Source: Pseudodesulfovibrio mercurii (GTDB lineage: Bacteria > Desulfobacterota > Desulfovibrionia > Desulfovibrionales > Desulfovibrionaceae). Taken from it: 32,000 nt of DNA. Below the pieces are notes generated by a model. The model had not been told where the DNA came from, made no database searches, and worked only from the letters and a program-made list of their open reading frames with translations. A program made the position numbers and the translations under genes. The DNA lies in contig NC_016803.1 of NCBI RefSeq assembly GCF_000189295.2, forward strand, positions 300,001 to 332,000, read 5' to 3'. This document shows positions 2,092-31,730 of this stretch, piece after piece; position 1 is the stretch's first letter, and each line of letters opens with the position of its first letter.

Positions 2092-3009
2092 ATGGAAACG
2101 TATGACGCCGTAGTCATAGGGGGCGGCCCGGCAGGAATGACGGCTGCCCTTTATCTTTTACGGGCCGGGGTGAAGACCGCCATGGTCGAGAAGCTGTCCC
2201 CGGGCGGACAGGTTTTGATGACTTCGGAGATCGAGAACTACCCCGGTTTCCCCAAGGGACTCCAGGGGTGGGAGCTGGCTGACAAGTTCGCCAACCATCT
2301 CGAGGATTATGACCTGCACCGGATCAACGACGAGGTCCGCTCCATCAAGGTGGGCGCGCCCTGGCACACCATCACGGTGGGCGACCAGGAGATCGGAGGC
2401 AAGGCCGTGGTCCTGGCCACCGGCTCCCGCTACCGCAAGCTCGGCGTGCCCGGCGAGGACCGTCTGATCGGGCGGGGCGTGTCCTATTGCGCCCTGTGCG
2501 ACGGCAACTTCTTTCGCGGACGGAACGTGGCCGTCATCGGCGGCGGCAACTCCGCCCTTGAAGAGGCCCTGTACCTGTCGCGTCTGGTGAACAAGGTCTA
2601 CCTCATCCACCGGCGCGAGGATTTCCGCGGCCAGGTCTGCTATCAGGACAAGTGCTTCACCAACCAGAAGATCGAGGTCATCCGCAAGACCGTGGTGGAC
2701 GAGATCCTGGGCGAAAGCGACGTGGAGGCCCTGGCCCTGCGCAACGTCGAGAGCGGCGAGCAATCCCGCCTGGAACTCGACGGCGTCTTTATCTTCATCG
2801 GGTTCGAGCCGATCATCGACTTTGTGCCCGAGGACATCCGGACGGAGCGCAACGGGGTGATCACCGACGTGGAGATGCGCACCAACGTGCCGGGCATCTT
2901 CGCGGCCGGGGACATCCGGGCGAAGATGTGCCGTCAGGTGGCCTCCGCCGTGGGCGACGGGGCGACCGCCGCCACCGCCGCCTTTTCCTATCTTGAGCAA
3001 CTGGACTAG
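2092..3009 (+). CDS. trxB: Thioredoxin-disulfide reductase
   Basis: 305 aa with the FAD motif VIGGGPAGMTAA, the redox-active CALCDG (CxxC), the NAD(P)H motif GGGNSALEEA and a C-terminal AAGD. It starts 3 nt after trxA. Confidence 0.93.
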   Translation: METYDAVVIGGGPAGMTAALYLLRAGVKTAMVEKLSPGGQVLMTSEIENYPGFPKGLQGWELADKFANHLEDYDLHRINDEVRSIKVGAPWHTITVGDQEIGGKAVVLATGSRYRKLGVPGEDRLIGRGVSYCALCDGNFFRGRNVAVIGGGNSALEEALYLSRLVNKVYLIHRREDFRGQVCYQDKCFTNQKIEVIRKTVVDEILGESDVEALALRNVESGEQSRLELDGVFIFIGFEPIIDFVPEDIRTERNGVITDVEMRTNVPGIFAAGDIRAKMCRQVASAVGDGATAATAAFSYLEQLD

Positions 3010-3017
3010 GAGTCCCC

Positions 3018-3746
3018 ATGCGTCGATTATTGGCCCCTGTCCTTATTGTCGTCCTCTTGTCCCTTGCGGGCTGCATGTGGATCGACAGTTATTTCCTGCC
3101 CCCGCCCGAGGATACGGCCCAGGAGCTGTACGAAGCGGGTGTGGCGGCCATGGACGAGAAGGACTACGGGGACGCCCAGGACTACTTCTCAAAGCTCAAG
3201 GACCGCTTCCCGTTCAGCCCGTACTCCCTCAAGGGTGAACTGGCCCTGGGTGACGCCTACTTCCTGGACGAGGATTACGTGCACGCCCTGGACGCGTACA
3301 AGGAGTTCGAGGCGCTGCACCCGAGCAACGAGAACATCCCCTACGTGCTCTACCAGATCGCCAACACAGACGTGTCCATGTTCCGGACCATCGACCGGCG
3401 GCAGGAGAACGTCAAGGAAGGGCTGGAGTACCTCTACCGCCTGGTGGAGACCTACCCCAAGTCGCAGTACGCCGAAGCGGCCAAGGAAATGATCCTCAAG
3501 AGCCGCCGCATCCTGGCGGAGCACGAGGTCTTCGTGGCCGACTTCTTCTGGCGCACGGAGCAGTACGGTCCGGCCTGGCACCGCTACCAGTACGTGGTGG
3601 AGAACTTTTCGGACATCCCCGATTTGCGCGACTACGCCATGAAGCGGGCCGAATACTCCTACTTCGAATATCAGAAGACCCTGTCCGAGGAAGAGCGGGA
3701 GCGCATCCAGGGGAGCTGGAAGCTCTGGCTCAAGCAGTGGCTCTAG
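3018..3746 (+). CDS. bamD: Outer membrane protein assembly factor BamD (YfiO-like TPR lipoprotein)
   Basis: The signal peptide has the lipobox LSLAGC. The ~240-aa protein has TPR-like repeats (YEAGVAAMDEKDYGDAQDYFSKL, GDAYFLDEDYVHALDAYKEF), typical of BamD. Confidence 0.8.
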   Translation: MRRLLAPVLIVVLLSLAGCMWIDSYFLPPPEDTAQELYEAGVAAMDEKDYGDAQDYFSKLKDRFPFSPYSLKGELALGDAYFLDEDYVHALDAYKEFEALHPSNENIPYVLYQIANTDVSMFRTIDRRQENVKEGLEYLYRLVETYPKSQYAEAAKEMILKSRRILAEHEVFVADFFWRTEQYGPAWHRYQYVVENFSDIPDLRDYAMKRAEYSYFEYQKTLSEEERERIQGSWKLWLKQWL

Positions 3747-3780
3747 GAGCCGCCCAACCCTTCAGCCGTCGACCGTTCCC

Positions 3781-4644
3781 ATGCCTGAACCGGAATTGTC
3801 CCTTCCCGACCTGATTGGCGAGTCCCTGGTGGACGACGCCCTGTTCGCGCTCGCCTATGAGGCGTCCACGGACAACGGGCGCGCGTTGATGAAGACCTGC
3901 ATCGCCCGGCTGTACGACTGGTACGGCCCGCGCAAGGACGCGGCCCGCGAGGTCGCGACCAGCTGGCGGGGCGGGTTCGACTCCATCCGCCGGACCGCGC
4001 CCGTGGACGTCGCCCTGGTCCTGTTCGACGGGGCCATGACCTCTCCGGCCCGGCTACTGGCCGGGCTGGTGCCCGCCATCGCCTGCGGCGTGCGCCGGGT
4101 CCTGGCCGTCCGCCTGGACGAGCGGGGTCCCTGGGCCCCCGGTCTGCTCACGGCCCTGGAACTGGCCGGGCAGGAACTGGTGGCCGATCTTGACCGCGCC
4201 GGGCTCGCAGGCCTGTTCGCCGAACTGGCGGCCGCCGGGGCGAGCGTGGCGGTCATCGACCTGGCCTCGGACCCGGCGTCCTGTCCCGAACGGGCCGGGC
4301 TGGCCGTGCACCGGCCGGTCTTCGGCCGCGGCGTCGCCGTGTTCCTGGAGGACGCGGAGACCTTCGATCTCGACGCCCTGGTCCGCACCCACCCAGACAC
4401 CGCGTTCACCACCTTCGGGGCGGACGTCCCCCTGCCCGACGGCTTTACGCGCGGCGGGGCGGACTTCCCGGCCTTCCTGGACGCGGTCCGCGACGTGGCC
4501 TACGCCCCGACCGCACGCGCGGGCGAGACCCTGGGCCGCGCCCGGCTGGTCCTGGGCCCCGGCCAGGAGGGATGTTGGGTCTGGCCCGAACTGCAACCGG
4601 AATTTTTCCTTCACCACCGCACCGCCTGGACCATCGGAGACTGA
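3781..4644 (+). CDS. Hypothetical protein (287 aa, no recognisable motif)
   Basis: Long ORF in the same orientation as its neighbours. Its stop TGA (4642-4644) lies 2 nt before the GTG start of the EF-G paralog, which suggests co-transcription. I could not place any family signature by eye. Confidence 0.6.
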
Positions 4645-4646
4645 TC

Positions 4647-6698
4647 GTGAGCAAGAGCAACGCCCCTTCGGCGAAGGTTCTCGGCAACCTCCGCAATATC
4701 GGCATCATCGCGCACATCGATGCCGGAAAAACCACGTTGACCGAGAGAATCCTCTATTATTCCGGAAAGATTCACCGCATCGGCGAGGTCCATGAGGGCA
4801 CGGCCACCATGGACTACATGCCCGAGGAACAGGAGCGCGGCATCACCATCACCTCGGCCGTGACCACCTGTCAGTGGGACCCGTGCATGATCAACATCAT
4901 CGACACGCCGGGCCACGTGGACTTCACCATCGAGGTGGAGCGCTCCCTGCGCGTGCTCGACGGGGCCGTGGGCGTGTTCTGCGGGGTCAGCGGCGTGGAG
5001 CCGCAGTCCGAGACCGTCTGGCGGCAGTCCGAGTCCTATCACGTGCCCAAGCTCGCCTTCGTCAACAAGATGGACCGCCTGGGCGCGGACTTCGCGGCCG
5101 TGCTCGAATCCATGGTCCAGAAGCTTCGGGCCAACCCCGTGGCCATCCAGTACCCGGACGGCGAGGGCCAGGAATTTTCCGGCGTGTTCGACTTGGTGAC
5201 CATGGAGCGGCTCCAGTTCGACCAGGCGACCAGCGGGGCCGAGTACTCGCGCACCCCGGTGAGCGGGGAGCAGGCCGAGATGCTCTCTCCCTGGCGCGAG
5301 AAGCTCATCGAGGCCGCGGCCGAGGAGGACGAGGAAATCCTCGACCTCTACCTGTCCGGCGAGGAGGTCCCGGCCGACAGGATTCACGCGGCCCTGCGCA
5401 AGGGCACCCTGGCCCGCCGGTTCGTGCCCGTGCTGGTCGGCTCGGCCCTCAAGAACGTCGGCGTGCAGCCGGTCCTGGACGCGGTCTGCCGCTACCTGCC
5501 GAGCCCCCTGGACGTGCCGCCCGCCACGGGCGTGGACCCGGTCACGCACACGAAGAAACATTTCGAGGTCTCCTCCAAGGAGCCCCTGTCCGCCCTGGTC
5601 TTCAAGGTGGCCATGGACTCCGGCCGCAAGCTGGCCATGATGCGCATCTATTCCGGGCGCATCGAGGCGGGCGGGACCGTGTACAACGTGACCCAGGACC
5701 AGGACGAGCGCGTGGCCCGGCTGTTTCGGCTGCACGCGGGCCGCAAGGAGAAGATCGACGCGGCCTTTGCGGGCGACATGGTGGCCGCTGCGGGCATGAA
5801 GTACGCCCGTACGGGCGACACCCTGTGCGACCGCTCCTCGCCGGTCCTCCTCGAACAGATCGCGGACTACAAGCCGGTCATCTCCCTGGCCATCGAGCCG
5901 CGCAACACCGAGGAGGGCGACAAGCTCGACGAGGTCCTGGAAAAATATCTCCTGGAGGACCCGACCCTGGACCTCAAGCACGACGAGGACACGGGCCAGA
6001 TCATCCTGTCCGGCATGGGCGAGCTGCACCTGGAGGTCATCCTGGAGCGGCTCGGCCGCGAGTACGGCCTGACGCCGCGCGCGGGCAAGCCGCAGGTGGT
6101 CTACCAGGAGACCGTGGGCGCCAAGGGCGCGGGCAAGGGCGTGTTCAGCCGCGAGCTGGGCGAGGTCATGCATTTCGGTGCGGTGGAGCTGTCCGTGGAG
6201 CCGTTGCCCAGGGACAAGGAACGGAGCATCTCCTTCGAGGTGGACACCGAGGCCTGGCCCGCCGCCTGGCTGGAGGCCGTGGAGGACGGCATCACCGACG
6301 GGTTGCAGAGCGGCGTGATCCGGGGCTACCCGGTGCAGAACGTGCGCGTGCGGGTGCTCGGCCTTGAACGGCGGGAGGGCGAGTCCAGCCCGGTGGGCTA
6401 CCGCATGGCCTCGGCCATGGCCCTGAAGGACGCCCTGGCCAACGCCGATCCCAAGCTCATGGAGCCGATTATGTGGGTGGAGATCTCCGTGCCCGAGGAG
6501 TTCGTCGGCGACGTGGTCGGCCTGCTCGGCTCCAAGGGGGCCAAGATCGAGAATATGATCGACCGGCACGGGCTCAAGATCGTCCAGGGACTGGCCCCGC
6601 TGGCCAGCCTGTTCGGCTTTTCCACGGACCTGCGCTCGGCCACCCAGGGCCGCGCCGGGTTCATGATGAAGTTTTCACGTTTTGACGTCCTGGAGTAG
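4647..6698 (+). CDS. fusA: Elongation factor G paralog (EF-G2-like translational GTPase)
   Basis: G motifs [17 protein letters not shown] and NKMD are present, with EF-G domains II-V throughout and a length of ~683 aa. I chose the GTG at 4647 (VSKSNAPS) because the in-frame ATG at 4572 would overlap the upstream gene by 73 nt. The gene is not in an rpsL-rpsG-fusA-tuf context. Confidence 0.88.
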
Positions 6699-6701
6699 CT
6701 G

Positions 6702-7241
6702 TTGACCCAGATGATTTCCCGCCGGACGCCCCCGGAAAAGCCGTCGAAACGGTCCTTCCGGGAATGGTGGAGGGGCAGCAAGCGCTGGATGCGGTACTGG
6801 TACCTGCGTCTCATGCGCCAGAACTCGTCGCCCAAGAACCTGGCCGCGGCCTGCGCGTTGGGCATGTTCATCGGCGCGCTGCCCATCATCCCGTTCCAGT
6901 CCGTGGTGGTCATCGCCCTGGCCTTCGTCCTGCGGGTCAACAAGCTGGCCGCGTGGCTGGCCACCTGTTACTCCAACGCGGCCACCATGGTCCCGTTCTA
7001 CTACTTCCTCTTCCAGGTGGGCCAGGCGGTCACGCCCTTCCACGACGTGGCCTTCGACCCGGACAAGCTGCGCATGGTGGACATGATCCACGCGGGCTGG
7101 CAGGTCTTCGGGGTCATGTTCGCGGGCGGCCTGGCCTTCGGCATCCCGGCCACCATCGTGACCTATTTCTTCTCCCTGTACGCCATCCGCCGCTACCGCA
7201 GGCGGCGGGCCGTGCGCATCCTGCGCAAGCGCGAGGGATAG
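6702..7241 (+). CDS. DUF2062 family membrane protein
   Basis: The N-terminus is basic. A conserved-looking block, SPKNLAAACALGMFIGALPIIPFQSVVVIALAFVLRVNKLAAWLATCYSN, is typical of DUF2062, and hydrophobic helices follow. The start is either TTG 6702 or ATG 6711. Confidence 0.7.
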   Translation: MTQMISRRTPPEKPSKRSFREWWRGSKRWMRYWYLRLMRQNSSPKNLAAACALGMFIGALPIIPFQSVVVIALAFVLRVNKLAAWLATCYSNAATMVPFYYFLFQVGQAVTPFHDVAFDPDKLRMVDMIHAGWQVFGVMFAGGLAFGIPATIVTYFFSLYAIRRYRRRRAVRILRKREG

Positions 7242-7397: not shown

Positions 7398-9479
7398 ATG
7401 CCGGTACGTCCCATGACGAAGATGATCCTGTTGGGCCTGGCCCTGTGCAGCCTGTTCGCCCTGGCCGCCACCCGAGAGGGGTGGTCGTATTACGGCCTGG
7501 CGGCGGGTGGTGCGCTGCTCGTCTGTCTTGCCGTCGGCGCCGCGTTGGAGAGGGCCGAGGCCCGGCTTCGGGCGGCCCTGGACCGGCTGGTCCGGGGCGG
7601 CGAGTTGCCCGAGGAGGACCGGGGCCTGCTCTGCGGAGCGCTGCTCCCGCTGGCCGGGGGGCTGGCCGCGCAACGCGAGGAGGCGGCCGCCGCCGAACGG
7701 GCCTTTCGGGCCCAGGGCAGCCCGGCCCTGATGTGCGACGCCAAGGGGCGCATCCGTCTGGTCACCGGGTCCCTGCTGGCCATCCTGCGCAAGGCCGAGG
7801 AACAGGTGGTCGGCCGGACCGTGAGCCAGGCCCTGTACGACCGAGACGGGGTTTCGGTGACGGAAAAGGCCCTGCGGACCATGAAGCCCGTGGCCGAGAC
7901 CCTGGACCTCAAATTGTGGGACGGGCGGATCGTGCCGGTGCAGCTTTCCGTGAATTTCGTCCTGGACGGGGCGGGTACGGCCATGGGGGCCGTGGCCTCC
8001 TTCCTGGACCTGTCCGAGCAGATGGGCCGCCGGCGGGAGCTGGAGGAGCAGCGCGGACGCATGAGGCAGGCGGGCGAGCGCATCAGCGACCTGGCCGAGC
8101 ACGTGGCCTCGGCCACGGAACTGCTTTCGGCCTCGGCCGACGAACAGGCCCAGGGCGCGCAGAAGCAGCGCCGTCAGACCGCCTCGGTGGCCACGGCCAT
8201 GGAGGAGATGACCGGCACGGTGCTGGAGGTGGCCCGCAACGCCACGGCGACCAGCGAGGCCGCGGACGAGGCCAACACCTCGGCCGCCGAGGGCGCGGCC
8301 ATGGTCAACGACGCGGTGTCGGCCATCAACCAGGTGGCCGAGTCGGCCCGCCAGCTGGGCCGGGAGATCGGTGAACTGGATTCCCAGGCCGGGGCCATCG
8401 GCCGGATCATCAACGTCATCAACGACATCGCGGACCAGACCAACCTGCTGGCCCTGAACGCTGCCATTGAGGCGGCCCGTGCGGGCGACGCGGGCAGGGG
8501 GTTCGCGGTGGTGGCCGACGAGGTGCGCAAGCTGGCCGAGAAGACCGTGGACGCCACCAAGGAGGTGGAGAAGGCCATCATCGCCATACAGGCGCGCTCC
8601 AAGGAGGCCACCAGTTCCATGCAGGCCACGGCGGCCAGGGTGGAGGAGAGCACGGCCCTGTCCAACCGCGCGGGCGAGTCCCTGCAACGGATCATGGACA
8701 ACATCCGCGACATGGTCGCGCGGGTGGCCCAGATCGCCACAGCCGCCGAGGAGCAATCCTCGGCCGCCGAGGAGATCATGCGCAGCGTGGAGGACATCGC
8801 CTCCATCGCCGAGGACGCGGACGAGGCCGCCGGACAGGCCGCCGGGGCCACCCGGGACATGGCCGAACTGGCCCGGGAACTGCTCGGCGTGTCCAGGGAG
8901 TTCGGCAGCGACGAGACCGGGGCGGGCGGCAGGCTGCGCCGCTCCGAGGGAGAGATGAAGGGCGTCCTGCCCAAGCTGGCCCAGGAGTACGTGCGCAAGA
9001 CCTTCGGCCAGGCGGTCTACGATGCCATGCAGGAGGAGATGGGCAATCCGGTCTTCCTGCCCGGCGACAGCTACCCGGACCAGGCCCTGCTTCAGATGGC
9101 CGAGATTGCGGCGGGGAGCGCGGGCGTCGAGGTCCGGGAGTTCTTCATCGGCCTGGGGAAGTACACGGTGGGCCGCTTCAACGAGCTCTATCCCGGCTAT
9201 TTCAAGAAGGACTCGCTCAAGGACTTCTACCTGCGCATGAACGACGTCCACGCCCAGCTGACCAAGGCCCAGCCGGGCATCAAACCGCCCACCTTCACCT
9301 ACGAGGACAAGGGCGACGTCCTGTTCATGAACTACCGTTCGAGCCGGGGGCTGTTCGACTACTTCGAGGGCATCCTGCTCGGCGCGGCTGACTTCAAGGG
9401 CGAGCGGGCCGAGATCGTCGTGAAGCCCTTTGACGGCCAGTCGGCCCGCGCCGAGATCCGATTCCTCGGTCCCCGCTAG
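7398..9479 (+). CDS. Methyl-accepting chemotaxis protein: TM hairpin, cytoplasmic PAS, MA signalling domain, C-terminal H-NOX domain
   Basis: The highly conserved MCP hairpin tip [44 protein letters not shown] is present. Two N-terminal TM helices are separated by only about 5 residues (TREGW). A PAS-like segment lies at about nt 7695-8018. The C-terminal 174 aa are H-NOX-like. ATG 7398 is preferred (GGAG 8 nt upstream); ATG 7413, ATG 7422 and the start codon opening the ORF at 7338 remain possible. Confidence 0.88.
8955..9476 (+). other. H-NOX (heme-NO/oxygen binding, HNOB) domain at the C-terminus of the MCP
   Basis: The domain starts [13 protein letters not shown] and contains YPGYF and NDVHAQLTK (candidate proximal His, codon 9249-9251). 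It also has PP, the heme-propionate motif YRSSR (Y-x-S-x-R), then [10 protein letters not shown]. These are collinear with the Caldanaerobacter tengcongensis H-NOX as I remember it (MKGTIVG, FPSYF, DEVHLQLTK, YVSKR, YDYFLGLIEG). Confidence 0.75.
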
Positions 9480-9620
9480 GCCGCCCCCTCGTTTCGGAAA
9501 AGATTATAATGGTCTATTCCGCACTTTCCGGTTGATATACTGTCAGTACGCCGCAAGTGGCCAACCTGTCCGGTGCACGCTCGTGAAGGCACGGGAATCT
9601 GACGTGAGGAGAGTGGCGGA

Positions 9621-11885
9621 ATGTCCGGAGACGACCTGAACAGGCAGATATTCAAGGAGGAAGCCTACGACCTCCTGATCGAACTCGAGGGCGCCCTGCT
9701 CGAACTCGAGGAAGCTCCCGACGATATGGATCTGGTCAACCAGATATTTCGGGCCCTGCATACCATCAAGGGGTCCGGTTCCATGTTCGGGTTCGAGGAG
9801 ATCGCCGCTTTCACCCACGAGGTGGAGACGGTCTTCGACATGGTCCGCAACGGCGACGTCCAGGCCACCCCGGTCCTGTGCAGCCTGGCTCTGCGCTCCC
9901 GCGACCAGATCCGGGCCATGCTCGAAGCCGAGGACGACGAGCCCGTGGCCCCGGAGGCCATGCGGGACATCCTCGACGGGTTGCGCGCCTTTGTCGAGGG
10001 GCTCGACGAGGCGGCCCCCGGCGAGGCGGCCGAACCCGCGCCCGAGTCCGTTGCCGAGGAACCGGCCGAACCCGAGGCCGAATCCGCAACCGACGACGCG
10101 TCCAACGCCACCCTGCATCGCTATGCCGTGACCCTCCGTCCCCTGGGCGGCGAGGTGGACGCCGAGGCGGTGGAGGCATTTTTCGAGGAACTGGAGCGGC
10201 TCGGGACCCTCAAGGTCGAGTCGGGCCACCGGGACACCGGCCACGGCTGGGAACTCTCCCTGGAGAGCGAGGCCGCCTGCGACGATGTCCAGGACGTGTT
10301 CTTCTTTTTGGACGCGAACCTCAAGGTCGAGGTCCGGGAGCTGGACGAAACCCCTGAACCGGCCTCCGTTGCGACCCCCGAACCGACCTCCGAATCTGTT
10401 TCCGAACCCGTTTCCGAACCGGACGAGGGGGCGGCCGAGTCCGCTCCGTCCGGCAAGCACAGGCCCGCCGCCCCGGTGGCCAGCTTCGTGGACGAGGAAG
10501 AGGAGTCCGTGCGCATCCCCATGATCGGCGAGATGCTCGTGGAGAGCGGGGACCTGACCTATGCGGACGTGGCCGAGGCCCTGACCTCCCAGAAGGGCGG
10601 GGTGGACAAGCCGTTGGGCCAGATCCTGACCGAGTCGGGCAAGGTCCCGGCGGACAAGGTGGACAACGCGGTCCGGCGGCAGGGCGAGGCCCGCGAGCAG
10701 GTGGCCGGGAAGAAGCGCCAGGAGGCCCTGAGCAGCATCCGGGTGGCGGCGGACAAGCTCGACTACCTGGTGGACCTGGTGGGCGAACTGGTCATCGTCC
10801 AGGCGCAGATCACCCAGGTGGTCAGCGAGAGGCACGACGCGGCCCTGACCCTTCTGGCCGAGGAGCTGGAGCGCTTGAGCGACGAGTTGCGCGACTCCAC
10901 GCTGGGCATCCGCATGCTGCCCATCGGCACCTCCTTCAGCAAGTTCCGGCGGCTGGTGCGCGACCTTTCGGGCGACCTGGGCAAGCAGATCACCCTGTCC
11001 ACCAGCGGCGCCGAGACCGAGCTGGACAAAACGGTCATCGAGCGGCTGGGCGACCCCCTGGTCCACCTGCTGCGCAACTCCATCGACCACGGCATCGAGC
11101 TGCCCCAGGAGCGGGTGGCCAAGGGCAAGCCCCCGCAGGGCAACATCATGCTCTCGGCCGAACACTCGGGCGGCGAGGTGCTCATTCGCATCACCGACGA
11201 CGGCAAGGGCATGTCCAGCGAGATGATCCGCGAGAAGGGCATCGAGCGGGGGCTGATCTCCAAGGACGCCGAACTGACCGAGAAGGAGCTGCTCAAGCTC
11301 ATCTTCGAGCCCGGTTTCTCCACGGCCAAGGTGGTGACCAGCGTGTCCGGCCGGGGCGTGGGCATGGACGTGGTCAAGCGCGCCATCGACTCCCTGCGCG
11401 GGACCATCGACATCGACTCCAAGCCCAACGCGGGCACGACCATCACCATCCGGCTGCCCCTGACCCTGGCCATCATCGACGGGCTCCAGGTCCGGGTGGA
11501 GAACGAATTCTACGTCATCCCCCTGTCCCTGGTGGAGGAGTGCGTGGAGCTGTCCCGCGCCGAGGTGGAGGAGTCCGGCTCCGGGCAGCGCATCCTGCAC
11601 CTGCGCGGCGAGATCGTGCCGTACATCCACATCCGCGAGTGGTTCGACATCGAGGGCGAGAACCCGCCCATCGAGCAGATCGTCATCACCGGCGTGGAGG
11701 GAAGCCGCGTCGGCATCGTGGTGGATACGGTCATCGGCGAGCACCAGACGGTCATCAAGAGCCTGGGCCGCGTGTACAAGGACGTGGAGGGCATCTCCGG
11801 AGCGACCATCAAGGGCGACGGGTCCATTGCGTTGATCCTGGACGTGCCCGGCCTGATCCGTCGGGTGATTGCCGAATCCAGATAG
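9621..11885 (+). CDS. cheA: Chemotaxis histidine kinase CheA (P1 Hpt, acidic linkers, MshEN-like insert, P3, P4 HATPase, P5 CheW-like)
   Basis: The Hpt site is [15 protein letters not shown] (His47). The dimerisation region is [20 protein letters not shown]. The N box is [12 protein letters not shown], with G boxes DDGKGM and GRGVGMDVV. The C-terminal CheW-like domain is IIDGLQV...[21 protein letters not shown] precedes the ATG. Confidence 0.93.
10512..10682 (+). other. MshEN / T2SSE_N-like double motif inside CheA (residues ~298-354)
   Basis: There are two consecutive 24-residue units, [24 protein letters not shown] and [24 protein letters not shown], separated by KGGVDK. They fit the pattern xLGxxLVxxGxLxxxxLxxxLxxQ described for MshEN/T2SSE_N repeats. 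The leading Arg of each unit is not conserved. Confidence 0.5.
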
Positions 11886-11904
11886 TATTTCCGAGAGGTT
11901 ATCC

Positions 11905-12972
11905 ATGCGAAAGATTCGAGTTCTCATTGTCGATGATTCCGCGGTCGTCCGGCAGACGCTCGAGGACATCCTGTCGTCCGACCCCCAGATCGAGATCATG
12001 GGCACGGCCGTGGACCCTTACGCGGCCGCCGAGCGGCTCAAGAAGGAGGTCCCGGACGTCATCACCCTGGACATCGAGATGCCGCGCATGGACGGGCTGA
12101 CCTTTTTGCGCAAGATCATGCAGCAGCGGCCCATTCCGGTGGTCATCTGCTCCTCCGTGGCCGGGGAGGGCACCTCCAACGCGGTCAAGGCCCTGGAATA
12201 CGGGGCCGTGGAGATCATCACCAAGCCCAAGGTGGGGACCAAGAAGTTTCTCGAGGAGTCGAAGATCCGGCTCATCGACAAGGTCAAGGCGGCGGCCCTG
12301 GCCGGGGCCCGGCCCGTGCGCCCGGCGGCCCCGCCGGTCCAGGTCAAGCCCAAGCTCAGCGCGGACGCGGTCATCGCCAAGGGCAAGCCCGTGGCCATGT
12401 CCCCAACGGAGAAGGTCTGCCTGGTGGGCGCGTCAACGGGCGGCACCGAGGCGCTGCGCGTCTTTCTCGAGGCCCAGCCCGAGAACTGCCCGCCCATCGC
12501 CATCGTCCAGCACATGCCCGAGCACTTCACGGCGGCGTTCGCCAACCGGCTCAACGGCATCTGCCGGATCACGGTCAAGGAGGCGGCGGACGGCGACGCC
12601 ATGATGCGCGGCCTGGCCCTGATCGCGCCGGGCGACAAGCACCTGCTCCTCAAGCGCACGGGCAACAAGTATTACGTGGAGGTCAAGGAGGGTCCCTTGG
12701 TCTCGCGGCACCGGCCCTCGGTGGACGTGCTCTTCCGCTCGGGGGCGCGGTACGGCGGGGCCAACGTGGTGGCCGCCATCATGACCGGCATGGGCGACGA
12801 CGGGGCCAAGGGCATGAAGGAGCTCAAGGACGCCGGGGCGTACACCATCGCCCAGGACGAGGCCAGCTGCGTGGTCTTCGGCATGCCCCAGGAGGCCATC
12901 AAGGAAGGCGGCGTGGACAAGGTCCTGTCCCTGGAAAAGATCGCGCCGGAGATTGTTCGAGCCTGCGGCTGA
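11905..12972 (+). CDS. cheB: Protein-glutamate methylesterase/glutaminase CheB (REC + CheB_methylest)
   Basis: ATG 11905 is preceded by GAGAGG. The REC domain is [12 protein letters not shown]...[12 protein letters not shown]. Methylesterase catalytic motifs are [10 protein letters not shown] (Ser), VQHMP (His) and GMGDDGA (Asp). Confidence 0.93.
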
Positions 12973-13102: not shown

Positions 13103-13435
13103 CTAGCTGTGGCGGTAGGCGATGACGTCCACCTCTTCGCGGGTGACCATGCCTTCCCTGAGCATGCCGTCGAGCTGGTCGAGCAGGGGCTTGAGCTTGT
13201 CCGGGTGGTCCACCACCTCCACGACCACGGGCAGGTCTTCGGACAGGCGCAGGATCTTGCTGGTGTGGATCAGGGAGTTGGCCCCGAAGCCCATCAGCCC
13301 CCGGTAGACCGTGGCCCCGGCCAGGCCCAGTTCGCGGGCCCGGCGGACGATGGCGTCGGCCAGGGGCTGGCCGTCGAACTTGTCGTCCTCGCCGATGTAG
13401 ATTCTGATGCGTTCCGCCTTTTCGAGCAGTTTCAT
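13103..13435 (-). CDS. DUF190 domain protein (PII-like, CrcB-associated)
   Basis: 110 aa, with RIYIGEDDKFDGQPLADAIVRRARELGLAGATVYRGLMGFG typical of DUF190. It lies 21 nt downstream of crcB on the same strand, and GGGGGAA precedes the ATG. Confidence 0.8.
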   Translation of the reverse strand: MKLLEKAERIRIYIGEDDKFDGQPLADAIVRRARELGLAGATVYRGLMGFGANSLIHTSKILRLSEDLPVVVEVVDHPDKLKPLLDQLDGMLREGMVTREEVDVIAYRHS

Positions 13436-13456
13436 GGCGTTCCCCCGAATGGTTGG

Positions 13457-13834
13457 TTAGAGCAGGCGGCCCAGGGCGATGCCGGTCAGGACCAGGGCCA
13501 GCCCGGCCACGGACTGGCCGACCACGTTGACCAGGGCCATGGCCATCTGCGCGGACTTGACCAGGTTCGCGGTCTCGAACATGTAGGTGGAGAAGGTGGT
13601 GAAGGCGCCCATGAACCCGGTCAGGACCAGGAGCCGGACCTCGCTGCCGGGCAGCAGACGGTTCTCGAAGAACCCCCAGACCGCGCCGAAGAGCAGGCAG
13701 CCGGCCATGTTCACGGCGAAGGTGCCCGCCGGAAAGGAGCCGCCCGCCATGCGCTGGGCCACGCCGGACAGGAAATAGCGCGACAGGGTCCCGGCGGCCC
13801 CGCCCAGAGAAAGATAGAGAATTTTGGTCAGCAT
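13457..13834 (-). CDS. crcB: Fluoride ion channel CrcB/FluC
   Basis: 125 aa with four hydrophobic segments. The signatures GGAAGTLSRY and GFMGAFTTFSTY are present. ATG 13834 is preceded by AAGGA, whereas the longer ORF start at 13867 lacks an RBS. Confidence 0.88.
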   Translation of the reverse strand: MLTKILYLSLGGAAGTLSRYFLSGVAQRMAGGSFPAGTFAVNMAGCLLFGAVWGFFENRLLPGSEVRLLVLTGFMGAFTTFSTYMFETANLVKSAQMAMALVNVVGQSVAGLALVLTGIALGRLL

Positions 13835-13880
13835 TTCGATATCCTTGGCCGAGGTATACCAACACAAGGAGAGAAAGCCA

Positions 13881-14477
13881 ATGGCGCTGGAGTGCGAATT
13901 GAAATATCCGGAGGCCGACCTGGCCGCCCTGGCCGACCGGCTGCGCGCGGCCGGGGCCGGGACCTCGGGCCGCTACTTCGAGGCCAACACGGTCTACGAC
14001 CGGCCCGACCGCTCCCTGAAGCGGGAGGGCGTCCTGCTCCGATTGCGCGAGCGCCAGGGGCAGGGGGTGCTCACGGTCAAGCGGCCGCCCGCGAACCCGG
14101 TGCCGTCGGCGCTCAAGGTCTTCGAGGAGATCGAGACCGGGGTGGACGATCCCTCGGCCCTGGCCCAGGCCCTGGAGGCCGTTGGCTTTGTCCCGGCCTT
14201 CCGCTACGAGAAGGTCCGCGAGAAGTGGCGCTACATGGGTTGCGTGGTCTGCCTGGACCATCTGCCCTTCGGGGATTTCGCGGAGATCGAGGGGGAAGAG
14301 GCCTCGGTCCCGGCCTGCGCCGCCGCTCTGGGCCTGGACCCGAACCGGACCACCAAGGCCACCTACCACGGCCTGAACCTGGAGTACCGGCTTGCGAAGG
14401 GGCTGGAACCGGACGAGAATTTCGTCTTCGAGCCGGGCGAACGCGCGGCCCTGCTGGACGAAATTGAGAATCTTTGA
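13881..14477 (+). CDS. CYTH domain protein (class IV adenylate cyclase / triphosphate tunnel metalloenzyme family)
   Basis: The N-terminal ExExK signature (MALECELKY) is present. The length is ~198 aa, with basic and acidic strands (REGVLLRLRE, LTVKRP, FEEIETGV, FAEIEGEE) typical of CYTH tunnels. AAGGAGAG precedes ATG 13881. Confidence 0.72.
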   Translation: MALECELKYPEADLAALADRLRAAGAGTSGRYFEANTVYDRPDRSLKREGVLLRLRERQGQGVLTVKRPPANPVPSALKVFEEIETGVDDPSALAQALEAVGFVPAFRYEKVREKWRYMGCVVCLDHLPFGDFAEIEGEEASVPACAAALGLDPNRTTKATYHGLNLEYRLAKGLEPDENFVFEPGERAALLDEIENL

Positions 14478-24724: not shown

Positions 24725-24831
24725 ACAAAAAGTTTAGGAGGGAGAAGGGGATGGGGGTCCGGGGGAAGGGGAAGAGGGAACTCTTTGAAAAGGGGTTCCC
24801 TCTTCCCCTTCCCCCGGCCGCCGGAGGCATC
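24725..24831 (-). repeat. GC-rich hairpin repeat unit, copy B (inverted relative to copy A)
   Basis: On the minus strand it reads GATGCCTCCGGCGGCC (24831-24816), then a 17-21 bp perfect stem (24761-24781 with 24795-24815), then AAACTTTTTGT (24735-24725). It begins 6 nt after the cls stop codon. Confidence 0.7.
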
Positions 24832-24837
24832 TTTCTC

Positions 24838-26295
24838 CTACAAAATGGGCGAGAGCAGGCGGGCGAAGCGGATGATGGTTTGGTGGAGGATATTTTTTTC
24901 GTCGTATTCGGTGAGGCCGGTTTCGACGCAGTGGTTGAAGTCGTTGAGGAACATGGTTTCGACGTCCTTGCAGAAGCCGGGTTCCTCGATGAGCATGGTG
25001 ATTTCGAAGTTGAGGCGGAAGGAGCGGTTGTCGAGGTTGGCGGTACCGACCCCGGCCAGGACGTCGTCGGCCAGGAAGACCTTCTGGTGCAGGAAGCCGT
25101 CGTCGTAGCGGAAGACCCGGATGCCGGGGCAGTTCAGTTCCTTGAGACAGGCGAAACCGGCCAGGTAGACGAGCAGGTGGTCGGGCTTGCGCGGGAGCAT
25201 GATGCGCACGTCCACGCCGCGCATGGAGGCCATTTGCAGGGCCTTCATGACCGAGGTGTCGGGCACGAAGTAGGGGCTGGCGATCCAGAACCGTTTCTTG
25301 GCCGAGGCGATGGCCTGGATGAACATGAGCGAGCAGTTCTCCAGGGGGTCCACCGGGCCGGTGGGCAGGGCCAGGACCTCTGCCGAGCCGCGTTTGGCGG
25401 GCATGGACAGGTCGAGTTCCGGGATTTCGCTGGTGGCCCAGTACCAGTCCTTGCCGAAGCAGACCTGGATGGGCAGCACGGCCGGGCCGGAGATCCGGGC
25501 GTGGGTGTCGCGCCAACCGCCGTAGCCGTTGTCCTTGTGGCCGAGGTATTCGGTGCCCACGTTGTGGCCGCCGATGAAGGCGGTGTGGCCGTCCACGACC
25601 ACGATCTTGCGGTGGTTGCGGAAGTTGAGCTGGAAGCGGTTGCCCGGTCCGCGCGTGGTGTGGAAGGGGAAGGCCTCGATGCCCGCGGCGCGCAGGGTGT
25701 CCCAATAGGCGGCCGGGGTCTTGTAGCTGCCGAGCTCGTCGTACAGGAAGCGGATGTGGACCCCTTCGCGGGCCTTGCTTACGAGCAGTTCCCCGAATTC
25801 CCTGCCCAGGTCGTCGTCGTGGACGATGTAGAACTGGATGAGCACGTAGCGTTCGGCCCCTTCCACGGCGGCGAAGATGGCCTTGAAGGTGGCCGGGCCG
25901 TCGACCAGCAACTCCATGTCGTTGCCGCCCAGGAAGGGCGATTCGGCCAGGGTCTCGAAGACCGTGTGCGGGGAGTGGGGGAACAGGCGTTCGGACAGGG
26001 GCGTGACCCTGGGCACGTCGTGGTTCCTGCCGATGCGCCGCTGGAACTCGGCCCGGCCGGTGCGCATGGCGTCCACGTAGCCGTGGAATTTGGACCGGCC
26101 GAATATCCAGTAGAGCGGCAGGGAGATGATCGGGAAGGTGACCAGGGAGATGGCCCAGGCCACGGCCCCCTGCGGGGTGCGGGTTTCGCGCACGGCGATG
26201 ACGGCCGTGACGATGCCCGTGATTTCCATGGCCGAGTAGAGCAGGCTGGCCAGGCCGAGCAGGAAGGACGTTTCCAGGGATTCCATAATCATCAT
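24838..26295 (-). CDS. cls: Cardiolipin synthase (PLD superfamily, two HKD motifs)
   Basis: Two N-terminal TM helices are followed by HKD motifs NHRKIVVVDGHTAFIGGHNVG and LHQKVFLADDVLAGVGTANLDNRS. ATG 26295 is preferred (AAGGGA upstream). The track start at 26316 is a TTG, and ATGs at 26292 and 26286 are also possible. Confidence 0.88.
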   Translation of the reverse strand: MMIMESLETSFLLGLASLLYSAMEITGIVTAVIAVRETRTPQGAVAWAISLVTFPIISLPLYWIFGRSKFHGYVDAMRTGRAEFQRRIGRNHDVPRVTPLSERLFPHSPHTVFETLAESPFLGGNDMELLVDGPATFKAIFAAVEGAERYVLIQFYIVHDDDLGREFGELLVSKAREGVHIRFLYDELGSYKTPAAYWDTLRAAGIEAFPFHTTRGPGNRFQLNFRNHRKIVVVDGHTAFIGGHNVGTEYLGHKDNGYGGWRDTHARISGPAVLPIQVCFGKDWYWATSEIPELDLSMPAKRGSAEVLALPTGPVDPLENCSLMFIQAIASAKKRFWIASPYFVPDTSVMKALQMASMRGVDVRIMLPRKPDHLLVYLAGFACLKELNCPGIRVFRYDDGFLHQKVFLADDVLAGVGTANLDNRSFRLNFEITMLIEEPGFCKDVETMFLNDFNHCVETGLTEYDEKNILHQTIIRFARLLSPIL

Positions 26296-26381
26296 TGCTA
26301 GCAAAATCCCTTGCAAAGGGAAAGCTTTGCTTGTCTTTGCCAGGGGGATGTGTTCTGGCTTTCCAGGCAGGAGAAGCAGCA

Positions 26382-29131: not shown

Positions 29132-29896
29132 TTGATTTCAGTGTTCCATAGGCGTCCCCTGTCCGTGGTCGTATGGATGCTCCTGGCCTGTGCGTGCCAG
29201 ATGCATCCGGCCGTGGCCGGGGACGCCGTCACCTTCGCCCTGTTCACCAGGGGGTGGCCGCCCTTCGAGATGGTCGTGGACGGCGAACCCGAGGGAGCGG
29301 CCCTGGATATCTTCCGGGCCTCCATGCCCGACGGCGTCGGGACCTCCGTCAAGTTGATCCCGGCCTCGCGCAGCATGCTCCGGACGCCGGGGGACGATAT
29401 CTACACCCGGCTGGAGTGCCGGGAATGGATCGACGACGCCGACAACTACCTGTGGAGCGGACCGGTGCTGACCCTGCGGACCGTGCTCCTGTCAAGGCGC
29501 AACCGGCCCGTGGAATACACGGACGCGTCGAGTCTGCACGGTCTGACCATCGGCTGCATCAAGAGCTACAGCTATCCCGAGGTGGAACCGTTGTTCAGGA
29601 GCGGCAAGGCCTACCGCTACGACGTGAACAGCGACGTGGTCCTGCTGCGCATGCTCAAGGCGGGCCGGGTGGACGCGGCCCTGTTCGACCAGTACACGGT
29701 GCGCTGGATCATCCGCAAATCGTCGGAACTGTCCATGGCCGACTTCCATGTGGCGGCCCGGCCCCTGGGCAGCGCGGAGCTGCGTTTCGTCTTCAACCGC
29801 CATCCCGGCTGGGAGGCGCGTCTGCCCGAGATCGACGCGCGCATCCGGACCAACCGGGAGGACGGCGTGTACGAGCGTATCATGGACCGCTACTGA
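29132..29896 (+). CDS. Periplasmic substrate-binding protein, family 3 (SBP_bac_3-like), orphan
   Basis: TTG 29132 has GGGAGG 5 nt upstream and gives a proper signal peptide (MISVFHRRPLSVVVWMLLACACQMHPAVAG). The mature part has SBP_bac_3-like features (WPPFEM, GCIKSYSYPE, LLRMLKAGRVDAALFDQYT). No permease or ATPase gene is adjacent. Confidence 0.65.
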   Translation: MISVFHRRPLSVVVWMLLACACQMHPAVAGDAVTFALFTRGWPPFEMVVDGEPEGAALDIFRASMPDGVGTSVKLIPASRSMLRTPGDDIYTRLECREWIDDADNYLWSGPVLTLRTVLLSRRNRPVEYTDASSLHGLTIGCIKSYSYPEVEPLFRSGKAYRYDVNSDVVLLRMLKAGRVDAALFDQYTVRWIIRKSSELSMADFHVAARPLGSAELRFVFNRHPGWEARLPEIDARIRTNREDGVYERIMDRY

Positions 29897-29913
29897 TCGT
29901 CGGCGCTGGTCGG

Positions 29914-29952
29914 AAAAAAAGGGTGGAGGCCGGAGCCTTCACCCTTTTTTTT
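29914..29952. terminator. Bidirectional Rho-independent terminator between the SBP gene and the ACT gene
   Basis: An A7 run (29914-29920) precedes a 10-bp stem, GGGTGGAGGC with GCCTTCACCC (29921-29944, loop CGGA, one G-T pair). A T8 run (29945-29952) follows. The flanking A and T runs allow termination in both directions. Confidence 0.8.
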
Positions 29953-29970
29953 CGCATGCTTGCGGGCGCG

Positions 29971-30402
29971 CTACATGGTGTAGAGCTTGTCCCCGGGGAT
30001 GATGTTGATGTTGTTCTTTTTGAGCAGCTCGATGCCCTGGTCCGTGCGGTCGAAGCGGAAGATGAGGACCGCCGAGTCGCCGGACTGCTGGACGAAGGCG
30101 TACATGTACTCCACGTTGATGCCCGCCTCCTGGAGCATGCTCAGGATGGTGTGCAGGCCGCCGGGCTGGTCGTTGACCTCCACGGCCACCACCGAGGTGC
30201 GGCCCACGGTGAAGCCCGCTTCCTTCAGCTTGGTCTTGGCCTTTTCGAAGTCGGACACGATCAGGCGCAGGATGCCGAAGTCCGAGGTGTCGGCCAGGGA
30301 CAGGGCGCGGATGTTCACCCCGGCCTCGGACAGGATGCGGGTGACTTCGGCCAGGCGTCCGGCCCGGTTTTCCAGAAATATGGAGAGTTGATCGACTTTC
30401 AT
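29971..30402 (-). CDS. ACT domain-containing protein (tandem ACT, amino-acid-binding type)
   Basis: 143 aa with two ACT-like units ([29 protein letters not shown] and [30 protein letters not shown]). It lies 23 nt downstream of paaK on the same strand. Confidence 0.8.
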
Positions 30403-30425
30403 GGTATTCTCCTTGGCTTGGGGGA

Positions 30426-31730
30426 CTAGTCCTTCTGACGGTTGTCGATGATGCGCTTGGCCTTGCCCAGGGACCGTTCGATGGACTTGGGCTCGACCAG
30501 TTTGACCTTGGCGGTGACGCCCAGGAATTCCTTAATGTTCTTCATTACCTTTGATTCCACACGCTGTAAACTCTTGATCTCGTCCGAGAACAGGGACTCG
30601 TTGACTTCCACCCGGACCTCCAGGGTGTCGAGGTTGCCCTGGCGTTCGACGATGAGCTGGTAGTGCGGGGTCAGCCCCTCGGTGTCGATGAGGATGGACT
30701 CGATCTGGGACGGGAACACGTTGACGCCCCGGATGATGAGCATGTCGTCGGACCGGCCGGTGACGCGCTTCATGCGCACGGTGGTGCGGCCGCACTTGCA
30801 CGGCGTGTAGTTCAGGGTGGTCAGGTCGCGGGTGCGGTAGCGGATGAGCGGGATGCCTTCCTTGGTCAGGGTGGTGAAGACCAGCTCGCCTTCCTCGCCC
30901 GGGCCCACGGGTTCGCCGCTGACCGGGTCGATGGTCTCGGCCAGGAAGTGGTCCTCCTGGATGTGCAGGCCGTCCTGGGCGGCGGCGCACTCGATGGCCA
31001 CGCCGGGGCCCATGACCTCGGACAGGCCGTAGATGTCGATGGCCGTGATGCCGAGCTTCTTCTCGATATCCGCGCGCATCTCGTTGGTCCAGGGCTCGGC
31101 CCCGAAGATGCCGATGCGCAGGGGCAGATCGCGGATGTCGATGCCCATCTCCAGGCCGGTCTCGGCCAGGAACAGGGCGTAGGACGGGGTGCAGCAGATG
31201 ACGTCCGGGGCGAAGTCCTTGAGCAGGGTGACCTGCCTGCGGGTGGAGCCGCCGGACACGGGCACCACGGTGGCGCCCAGGGCCTCGGCCCCGTAGTGCG
31301 CGCCCAGGCCGCCCGTGAACAGGCCGTAGCCGTAGGCGTTGTGCACGGTGTCCGCGGCGGACGCGCCGGCGGCCATCATGCACCGGGCCACGAGTTCGCC
31401 CCAGTTCTCGATGTCGCGCTTGGTGTAGCCGACCACGGTGGCCGTGCCCGTGGTTCCGGAGGAGGAGTGAATGCGGACGATCTGGTCCTTGGGCACGGCG
31501 AACATGCCGAAGGGATACTGGTCGCGGAGGTCCTGCTTGACCGTGAACGGCAGCAGGGTGATGTCCTTCAGGCTCTTGATGTCCTGGGGCTTGACGCCCT
31601 TTTCGTCAAATTTTTTCTTGTAGAACGGGACGTTGGCATAAACCCGTTCGCACAGGGATTTGAGCCTGCGCAGCTGGAGCGCTTCCATTTCCTCCCTGGG
31701 CAGGGTCTCGTTCTTCACGTCGTAGATCAT
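30426..31730 (-). CDS. paaK: Phenylacetate--CoA ligase family protein (PaaK-like adenylate-forming enzyme)
   Basis: ATG 31730 is preceded by AAGGAGG (8-nt spacing). The protein is 434 aa with the AMP-binding motif [43 protein letters not shown] and a C-terminal lid domain. The upstream ORF extension to 31889 is rejected. Confidence 0.9.

Follow-up and report, generated by a model that had tools for sequence, protein, structure and literature searches.

A Pseudodesulfovibrio mercurii chemoreceptor with an H-NOX domain behind its signalling hairpin, a probable heme-based gas sensor encoded beside cheA and cheB

What does a chemoreceptor sense when its heme domain follows the signalling hairpin, and how could such a domain signal? 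These questions are raised by a gene of the sulfate-reducing anaerobe Pseudodesulfovibrio mercurii ND132 that lies within a window of 32,000 nucleotides (the whole stretch of DNA analysed here; NC_016803.1, positions 300,001 to 332,000, assembly GCF_000189295.2). The gene encodes a methyl-accepting chemotaxis protein (MCP) with a C-terminal H-NOX domain, and cheA and cheB follow directly downstream. Its product is very probably a membrane-tethered, cytoplasmic, heme-based chemoreceptor for a diatomic gas, with the H-NOX domain as its main input.

The last 174 codons of the gene hold a complete H-NOX domain, with a profile match far beyond chance. Pfam HNOB (PF07700) aligns with residues 521-673 (E 3e-31, 109 bits against a cut-off of 25.5) and is covered from position 1 to 161 of its 163 positions. 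This confirms a sequence-only reading of the same DNA, which had called the domain complete and placed its start at nucleotide 8955, exactly at Met520. Searched against PDB sequences with phmmer, the domain finds the H-NOX of Caldanaerobacter tengcongensis first (Tt H-NOX; 1U55/1U4H and mutants; E about 1e-14, 27% identity), ahead of those of Kordia, Nostoc and Shewanella. An AlphaFold2 (AF2) model of the domain, built from a 22-sequence alignment, reaches a mean predicted local distance difference test (pLDDT) of 95.0 and a predicted TM-score (pTM) of 0.90. The model has the H-NOX fold, which pairs a helical N-terminal with an alpha/beta C-terminal subdomain, and its top Foldseek matches in the PDB are all H-NOX structures. 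The best of these are Tt/Cs H-NOX (1U4H, 1U55, 4IT2; TM-score 0.87-0.91, root-mean-square deviation 2.2-2.7 Å), ahead of Nostoc, Kordia, Shewanella and the heme domain from soluble guanylate cyclase (sGC) beta1, with an overall range of 0.84-0.91 for Tt, Nostoc, Shewanella and sGC beta1.

Residues were mapped onto Tt H-NOX through the phmmer PDB alignment and a 269-sequence MAFFT alignment, and the two agree. His618 corresponds to the proximal heme ligand of Tt H-NOX; as the domain holds exactly one His, this assignment is unambiguous. The Y-x-S-x-R heme-propionate motif is formed by Y646, S648 and R650, P631 (domain Pro112) corresponds to Tt Pro115, and G587 and G658 (domain G68 and G139) to Tt G71/G143. 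All of these residues are invariant in the clade of C-terminal H-NOX domains described below, although its members are only 37-67% identical overall. By alignment, the domain almost certainly binds heme b via His618 and the Y-S-R triad. In the distal pocket, Tyr655 takes the position of Tt Tyr140, while Ala528 and Thr590 replace Tt Trp9 and Asn74. These assignments, from the proximal His to the Ala and Thr, reproduce those of the sequence-only reading. That reading had also called for a check by predicted structure. The fold is borne out by the match to known H-NOX structures, and it is alignment together with fold identity, not an explicit superposition of coordinates, that puts the residues in the pocket. 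The domain has no Cys, so the Zn/thiol redox mechanism reported for heme-free V. cholerae H-NOX (PMC8738867; PMC7108781) is excluded here.

From N- to C-terminus, the receptor consists of a transmembrane (TM) hairpin, a HAMP-like helical linker, a PAS domain, the MCP signalling (MA) hairpin, a linker of about 15 residues and the H-NOX domain. The position of H-NOX after MA, also proposed from the sequence alone, is given by both the profile matches and AF2. Kyte-Doolittle averages over 19-residue windows exceed 1.6 at residues 5-9 and 31-34, with hydropathy peaks spanning about 5-27 and 31-52. AF2 places helices at 5-25 and 29-65, so that TM2 runs on into the cytoplasm to residue 65. Since only the three-residue turn 26-28 joins the two TM helices, there is no periplasmic domain. 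Pfam detects no HAMP domain in residues ~53-104, which are poorly conserved among 62 full-length homologues, and finds PAS_4 at 106-208 (E 1.7e-6, 28.6 bits against a cut-off of 23.1). The PAS domain contains zero His and one partly conserved Cys (C113), against PDB sequences it matches only the cytoplasmic PAS of WalK, and weakly, and no recognisable cofactor motif was detected in its sequence. Hydropathy, AF2 and PAS_4 therefore agree with the earlier proposal of a cytoplasmic PAS and no periplasmic sensor, but the label "dual gas/redox sensor" attached to it is unsupported by a PAS domain of this kind, which leaves a second input, redox or gas, purely conjectural.

In the signalling part of the receptor, Pfam MCPsignal matches residues 286-470 (E 1.3e-48), and AF2 (full-length model, mean pLDDT 82.7) shows a single long antiparallel hairpin with arms 206-361 and 363-503. 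The C-terminal arm of 141 residues (about 20 heptads) and a gap-free match to NCBIfam CtpM across 276 residues suggest a receptor of the 40-heptad (40H-like) class. Among the 62 homologues, the tip region 337-383 is nearly all invariant, and methylation-type consensus motifs at 266-273 and 448-456 are kept in most.

One possibility is that the H-NOX domain has lost its signalling role and serves as a heme storage, oligomerisation or localisation module, leaving the receptor to signal via PAS alone. A linker predicted to be flexible would suit this explanation. It is nevertheless very unlikely, given how the homologues have diverged. H-NOX is as conserved as MA, and both stand far above the moderately conserved PAS domain and the poorly conserved first 100 residues. 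The heme-binding and hinge residues are all invariant, and the pair of MA and HNOB persists through exchanges of the N-terminal sensor, with some members lacking PAS. In addition, segment 497-519, which includes the linker, measures 20-24 residues in 62 of 62 aligned sequences and closes with a semi-conserved L-R-x-S-x-G-E-M-K-G that runs into Met520. The conserved length and end motif argue for a constrained linker geometry and not a random tether. An internal start at Met520 was also considered and set aside, as the G-E codons appear to put any Shine-Dalgarno-like sequence too near the ATG.

The architecture is widespread within a single order. The best 120 full-length homologues listed all combine MCPsignal and HNOB, usually with PAS, and all belong to the Desulfovibrionales; starting the search from a Nitratidesulfovibrio member leads to the same result. 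Some of these homologues are named "heme NO-binding domain-containing protein" at NCBI. Searched exhaustively by phmmer against 1.84 billion representatives at 50% identity, the H-NOX domain finds 651 proteins at E<=1e-3. The top ~25 matches (E<1e-29, 118-253 bits) carry H-NOX at the C-terminus of proteins of 600-970 residues, and they are followed, at 93 bits or less, by stand-alone H-NOX of ~180 residues and proteins of ~600 residues with an N-terminal H-NOX. The C-terminal type comprises about 24 clusters at 50% identity. In species-level genomes (one per GTDB species), it was found at 72 loci or more, a lower bound set by a scan with exact peptide patterns from 6 sequences. These loci occur in Pseudodesulfovibrio, Salidesulfovibrio, Solidesulfovibrio, Nitratidesulfovibrio, Desulfonatronum, Desulfocurvus, Humidesulfovibrio, Desulfolutivibrio, Desulfothermus and Desulfohalobiaceae, with a few more on short contigs of metagenome-assembled genomes (MAGs) labelled as other phyla. 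Nearly all 72 have MA in the same open reading frame (ORF) and an H-NOX domain that ends 0-16 residues before the stop codon. A homologue search with the domain alone returned 16 proteins, mostly fragments. The novelty claimed for this domain order from the sequence alone was thus overstated, as MCPsignal followed by HNOB is common in the Desulfovibrionales.

What varies among these receptors is the N-terminal part. In divergent members, the partners of MA-HNOB recognised by Pfam include 4HB_MCP and HAMP with or without PAS, dCache_3 with PAS, and a TM hairpin with PAS, and in other cases none is recognisable. The unit from MA to H-NOX is a mobile, co-inherited module of the Desulfovibrionales. 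In rare relatives of one lineage, a di-iron domain of the DcrH type follows H-NOX in a tandem MCPsignal-HNOB-Hemerythrin arrangement (Hemerythrin E 1.2e-15). Two apparent stand-alone members of the clade (P0274 and P0270) were rejected as assembly artefacts: one stems from an N-run with a frameshift, the other from a long-read contig full of frameshifts. In the draft genome of Desulfothermus okinawensis JCM 13304 (4165-5037), a stop codon and 12 nt lie between the end of MA and an H-NOX ORF that starts with MMKGILPKL; the gene may be genuinely split into an MCP and a stand-alone H-NOX of this clade, or the fragmented draft may contain a sequencing error.

The C-terminal type also has its own pocket signature. 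In 142 sequences of the clade, the Tt Tyr140 position is Tyr in 135 (95%), the Asn74 position is Thr in 107 and Ser in 29, and the Trp9 position is Ala, Thr, Met or Val. Met-Thr-Tyr is the dominant triad among the 50% representatives of this type. By comparison, 31 of 32 N-terminal MCP-type domains carry Trp-Asn-Tyr (W-N-Y), and stand-alone relatives mostly have Leu or Phe at position 140. In a neighbour-joining tree of ~150 representatives, which carries no support values, all C-terminal members and one 171-residue fragment form one clade, sister to a W-N-Y clade that includes the O2-binding Tt H-NOX. The tree is suggestive of a monophyletic C-terminal clade in this sister position. The known fusions of Clostridia and Thermoanaerobacter are N-terminal, as the sequence-only reading remarked of such fusions, and the surveyed ~600-residue proteins with H-NOX at residues 1-160 all fall in the separate W-N-Y clade. 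This pattern fits one Tyr-bearing, MCP-associated H-NOX lineage of anaerobes that was fused to receptors in two opposite orientations.

A bolder interpretation, which we regard as unlikely, is that the C-terminal clade represents a third functional class of H-NOX. With its conserved M/A-T/S-Y pocket, its ligand profile would differ from those of both the high-affinity W-N-Y O2 binders and the NO-selective apolar type. Signalling would take the reverse path, in which the N-terminal subdomain acts on the last MA helix and on the PAS beside it, and the receptor would combine two inputs in the control of a dedicated CheA. Examples of such a class may include an O2 sensor of low affinity tuned to oxic-anoxic interfaces, or a sensor that answers to CO or is modulated by sulfide.

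Gene context points to the kinase that this receptor may control. In P. mercurii, cheA begins 141 nt after the receptor stop codon and is overlapped at its end by cheB (CheB_methylest E 3.5e-65, Response_reg E 5.4e-23); no cheW, cheY or cheR was found in the local che cluster. The arrangement of receptor, cheA and cheB is identical in Desulfovibrio oxyclinae, and Paucidesulfovibrio gracilis keeps the receptor and cheA with cheR in place of cheB. Other relatives have larger clusters. For example, the order in D. inopinatus is H-NOX-MCP, second MCP, cheY, cheA, cheW, cheB and CYTH, and that in Desulfonatronum is H-NOX-MCP, MCP-like gene, STAS, cheY, cheA and hybrid kinase. This range suggests that the cheA/cheB pair arose by stepwise reduction of one ancestral che cluster. 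Of the 62 genome loci whose flank is long enough, 15 have cheA starting no more than 300 bp downstream and 13 have it at 2-3.5 kb, 28 in all. The receptor heads a small che module in the P. mercurii orthologue group, while distant paralogues are orphans. The cheA-cheB pair directly downstream, with its conserved linkage in the orthologue group, is the most relevant context and was missed by the sequence-only reading.

Two further observations concern the che clusters of relatives. A second MCP-like protein of 625-665 residues, with a weak or divergent MCPsignal, is encoded between the H-NOX receptor gene and cheA in Nitratidesulfovibrio, D. inopinatus and Desulfonatronum (9200-11077 on locus L004, 10097-12013 on L001 and 5140-7134 on L066); this gene is absent from the P. 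mercurii window. A link to the CheA2 (DVU1960) cluster of D. vulgaris Hildenborough, described as uncharacterised (PMC3944678), was dropped, as no Hildenborough orthologue is among the matches listed. Receptor orthologues do occur in Nitratidesulfovibrio sp. HK-II, Nitratidesulfovibrio sp. A2, N. termitidis, N. liaohensis and N. oxamicus.

How might a gas bound at the C-terminus reach CheA? Both ends of an MCP hairpin are membrane-proximal, so a C-terminal H-NOX would sit beside PAS atop the four-helix bundle. The N-terminal helix of H-NOX, part of the subdomain expected to rotate on activation, would be the one tethered to the last MA helix. Judging from the alignment and model, His618 would ligate the heme iron, Y646, S648 and R650 would hold the propionates, and Tyr655, probably aided by the hydroxyl of Thr590, would hydrogen-bond the bound diatomic gas. 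Ligand binding would then relax the heme and rotate the N-terminal subdomain about a hinge at G587 and G658. A hinge mechanism has been described for H-NOX, and these residues are taken to be the two conserved hinge Gly mentioned there without numbers (PMC8738867). The rotation would alter the pull or docking on the last MA helix or PAS, and thereby bias the bundle towards its kinase-on or kinase-off state. The target would be the CheA encoded directly downstream, the probable signalling partner by its position, and adaptation could make use of the neighbouring CheB together with the methylation-type motifs that are conserved.

The sequence-only reading left the ligand open, which was the right stance. 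O2 is the most probable physiological ligand, although we would put it at slightly less than even chances. Maintenance of a polar pocket is indicated by the conserved Tyr and by a conserved hydroxyl-bearing residue at position 74. A distal Tyr is considered requisite for O2 binding, and the H-NOX proteins of obligate anaerobes are regarded as MCP-fused putative O2 sensors (PMC8738867). It is the combination of these residues with this view that favours O2. With O2 as the ligand, the receptor would mediate an O2-avoidance or microaerotactic response in an obligate anaerobe. NO is the next most probable ligand, and CO or the heme redox state plausibly account for the remainder.

Several points weigh against this proposal, some of them against O2 in particular. 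Two of the three residues of the O2-stabilising network of Tt H-NOX are replaced (Trp9 by Ala and Asn74 by Thr), and O2 affinity could be low or absent as a result. The H-NOX of C. botulinum is reportedly an NO sensor. In NO rebinding and koff it is unlike Ct H-NOX, even though it carries the homologous Tyr, and the influence of Tyr140 was judged "not preponderant" (PMC10411614). On docking geometry, the full-length AF2 model has a pTM of 0.43 and gives no reliable inter-domain geometry, and the linker is predicted to be disordered, with pLDDT < 50 at 504-509. CheA is absent within 3.5 kb in 34 of the 62 related loci. The cluster contains neither cheW nor cheY, and the output may be flagellar or other. 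Finally, no experimental study of heme binding or ligand response in the C-terminal clade was found in the full-text literature searched.

The first of these points also form the case for NO. If the domain sensed NO and not O2, the receptor would keep cells clear of nitrosative stress; sulfate reducers encounter NO that arises from nitrite reduction and from denitrifiers nearby. The trigger would be Fe(II)-NO formation, possibly with release of His618, and the mechanism would otherwise be as proposed above. NO stays plausible because the distal network is incomplete and Tyr alone does not fix behaviour (PMC10411614), and every H-NOX studied so far binds NO (PMC8738867). On the other hand, NO-selective H-NOX are typically apolar at the Tyr140 position, as the Leu or Phe of most stand-alone relatives illustrates. 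The distal Tyr of this clade is almost always kept, and the conserved Thr/Ser hydroxyl suggests that a hydrogen-bonding, polar pocket has been retained. An NO sensor is therefore possible, if somewhat improbable, and O2 continues to be favoured.

A further alternative is that the heme responds to CO, sulfide or the cytoplasmic redox state through Fe(II)/Fe(III), and that the receptor serves energy or redox taxis, possibly together with PAS. The hosts live in sulfidic, CO-cycling, anaerobic niches, the M/A-T/S-Y pocket is unlike both characterised classes, and the adjoining PAS has an unassigned ligand. Against this, there is no direct evidence for such a response. The absence of Cys from the domain excludes thiol-based redox sensing, and the PAS domain has no His or recognisable cofactor motif. 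This alternative is improbable, and a diatomic gas, most probably O2, is retained as the proposed signal.

Like the H-NOX-MCP of Tt and those of clostridia, the P. mercurii receptor joins H-NOX and MCP in one polypeptide of an obligate anaerobe. It shares the proximal His, Y-x-S-x-R, Pro115 and distal Tyr with Tt H-NOX, its best PDB match by both sequence and fold. However, the Tt and clostridial type has its H-NOX at the N-terminus (residues 1-~160 of ~600) and a W-N-Y pocket, whereas the P. mercurii receptor has it after MA and an A-T-Y pocket within an M/A-T/S-Y clade. The PAS domain is a further difference. Stand-alone, NO-selective H-NOX of facultative anaerobes (Shewanella, Vibrio, Nostoc and Legionella) have the same fold and heme-binding residues (TM-score 0.86-0.91), but they are separate proteins of ~180 residues that act in trans with histidine kinases or c-di-GMP enzymes. 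They have Leu or Phe at position 140 in an apolar pocket, and some contain a Zn/Cys site that is absent from the P. mercurii domain. HemAT (globin-coupled) and Aer2-type PAS-heme receptors also couple a soluble or cytoplasmic heme sensor to an MCP domain, with the sensor N-terminal to MA. Their sensor folds are different (globin, PAS), and the PAS of the P. mercurii receptor lacks a His for heme.

A parallel in layout from the same order is DcrH of Desulfovibrio vulgaris, and the sequence-only reading drew it aptly. In DcrH, an O2-type metallo-sensor, a C-terminal hemerythrin, likewise follows the MCP signalling domain; a role in anaerotaxis has been proposed, and its signalling route from the C-terminus to MA is described as unresolved (PMC13401364). 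The parallel concerns layout only: the DcrH sensor is a non-heme di-iron hemerythrin that is not homologous to H-NOX, and Pfam finds no hemerythrin in the P. mercurii receptor. DcrH also has a periplasmic region and HAMP but no PAS (PMC13401364).

The remaining features of the locus are compiled in Table 1. The protein encoded by the receptor ORF matches the annotated MCP of P. mercurii ND132 at 100%, and the databases differ in its start. GenBank EGB13487.1 and UniProt F0JEC4 give 693 residues from 7398, and RefSeq WP_238528275.1 gives 688 residues, starting five codons later at 7413. A GGAG 8 nt 5' of the ATG at 7398 favours the longer form. A sigma-54-like promoter 5' of the gene was rejected for its wrong GG-to-GC spacing, and a scan for consensus sigma-70 promoters and terminators gave nothing useful. 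An Rfam scan of the whole window found no RNA family at the gathering threshold, including the fluoride riboswitch. Upstream of the receptor, genes for thioredoxin reductase, BamD/YfiO, a conserved ORF, an EF-G paralogue and DUF2062 follow one another (2092-7241), and synteny of this block extends to D. oxyclinae and P. gracilis. Downstream, DUF190 and crcB sit between cheB and the CYTH-like ORF, beyond which lie clpS and clpA. Two ORFs on the + strand, 24751-26298 (516 aa) and 29173-30426 (418 aa), have no Pfam match; given the high GC content, both may be spurious or overlapped by real genes on the opposite strand.

Table 1. Features of the receptor gene, its neighbours and two tandem-sensor relatives. 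Positions are those of the window unless a relative's locus is named.
Feature	Position	Strand	Residues or length	Basis or remark
MCP with C-terminal H-NOX, whole gene	7398..9479	+	693 aa + stop	
TM hairpin	7410..7553	+	~5-25 and ~29-52, turn of 3-5 residues	Kyte-Doolittle, AF2
Helical linker TM2-PAS, HAMP-like layout	7554..7709	+	~53-104	AF2 helices 29-65, 72-75, 82-104
Cytoplasmic PAS	7710..8012	+	~105-205	Pfam PAS_4, AF2 five-stranded fold
MCP signalling hairpin	8013..8906	+	206-503, tip ~362	Pfam MCPsignal, AF2
MA-to-H-NOX linker	8907..8954	+	about 504-519	AF2 (low confidence at 504-518), alignment
H-NOX (HNOB) heme domain	8955..9476	+	520-693	Pfam, phmmer, AF2 (519-692 in the full-length model), Foldseek
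Ala528 (domain Ala9), at Tt Trp9 position	8979..8981	+	528	Alignment
Thr590 (domain Thr71), at Tt Asn74 position	9165..9167	+	590	Alignment
His618 (domain His99) = Tt His102, predicted proximal heme ligand	9249..9251	+	618	Alignment
Y646-R-S648-S-R650 (domain Y127/S129/R131) = Tt Tyr131/Ser133/Arg135, Y-x-S-x-R heme-propionate motif	9333..9347	+	646-650	Alignment
Tyr655 (domain Tyr136) = Tt Tyr140, distal pocket	9360..9362	+	655	Alignment
cheA (Hpt, dimerisation, HATPase_c, CheW-like)	9621..11885	+		Pfam
cheB (REC + methylesterase)	11869..12972	+		Pfam; overlaps cheA end, start codon uncertain
Conserved ORF	3781-4644		~287 aa	No Pfam match
EF-G paralogue	4572-6698			
DUF2062	6702-7241			
DUF190 + crcB (fluoride channel)	13103-13867	minus		
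CYTH-like ORF	13824-14477			Orthologues carry Pfam CYTH
MCPsignal-HNOB-Hemerythrin relative, metagenomic protein (P0132)			764 aa	
MCPsignal-HNOB-Hemerythrin relative, Desulfohalobiaceae MAG locus (L069)	3169-5487 on that locus			

A Desulfovibrio desulfuricans HNOB or H-NOX-MCP protein is reportedly listed by Iyer et al. (2003) and by Pellicena et al. (2004), so that such proteins have probably been on record for two decades. Domain databases catalogue the architecture, a Pfam run suffices to see it, and its parts are all known, yet, as far as we found, it is apparently uncharacterised. The full-text literature searched, which did not extend to the founding H-NOX papers, contained no study of a C-terminal H-NOX chemoreceptor or of any Desulfovibrio H-NOX. 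A 2026 review of aerotaxis receptors discusses DcrH, and the term H-NOX appears nowhere in it (PMC13401364). Nor did the literature searched recognise the clade as distinct, monophyletic and spread over the order, or mention its pocket signature, its reversed tethering, MA-HNOB as a modular unit or the dedicated CheA neighbour.

For the family, the C-terminal clade offers a natural experiment on the discrimination between O2 and NO, as it keeps the distal Tyr without its Trp and Asn partners. The reversed attachment is informative in its own right, because the tethered end is the H-NOX N-terminus, the part that moves on activation. It also provides a widespread case in which sensory input enters the MA hairpin from its C-terminal end, a route that is little understood (PMC13401364). 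For the organisms, the only sensors that the sources cited here discuss for the aerotaxis of sulfate reducers are DcrA and DcrH (PMC8396549; PMC13401364). Sulfate reducers form sharp bands at oxic-anoxic interfaces, and the H-NOX receptor encoded beside cheA is a third candidate sensor for this behaviour, one that is genetically testable.

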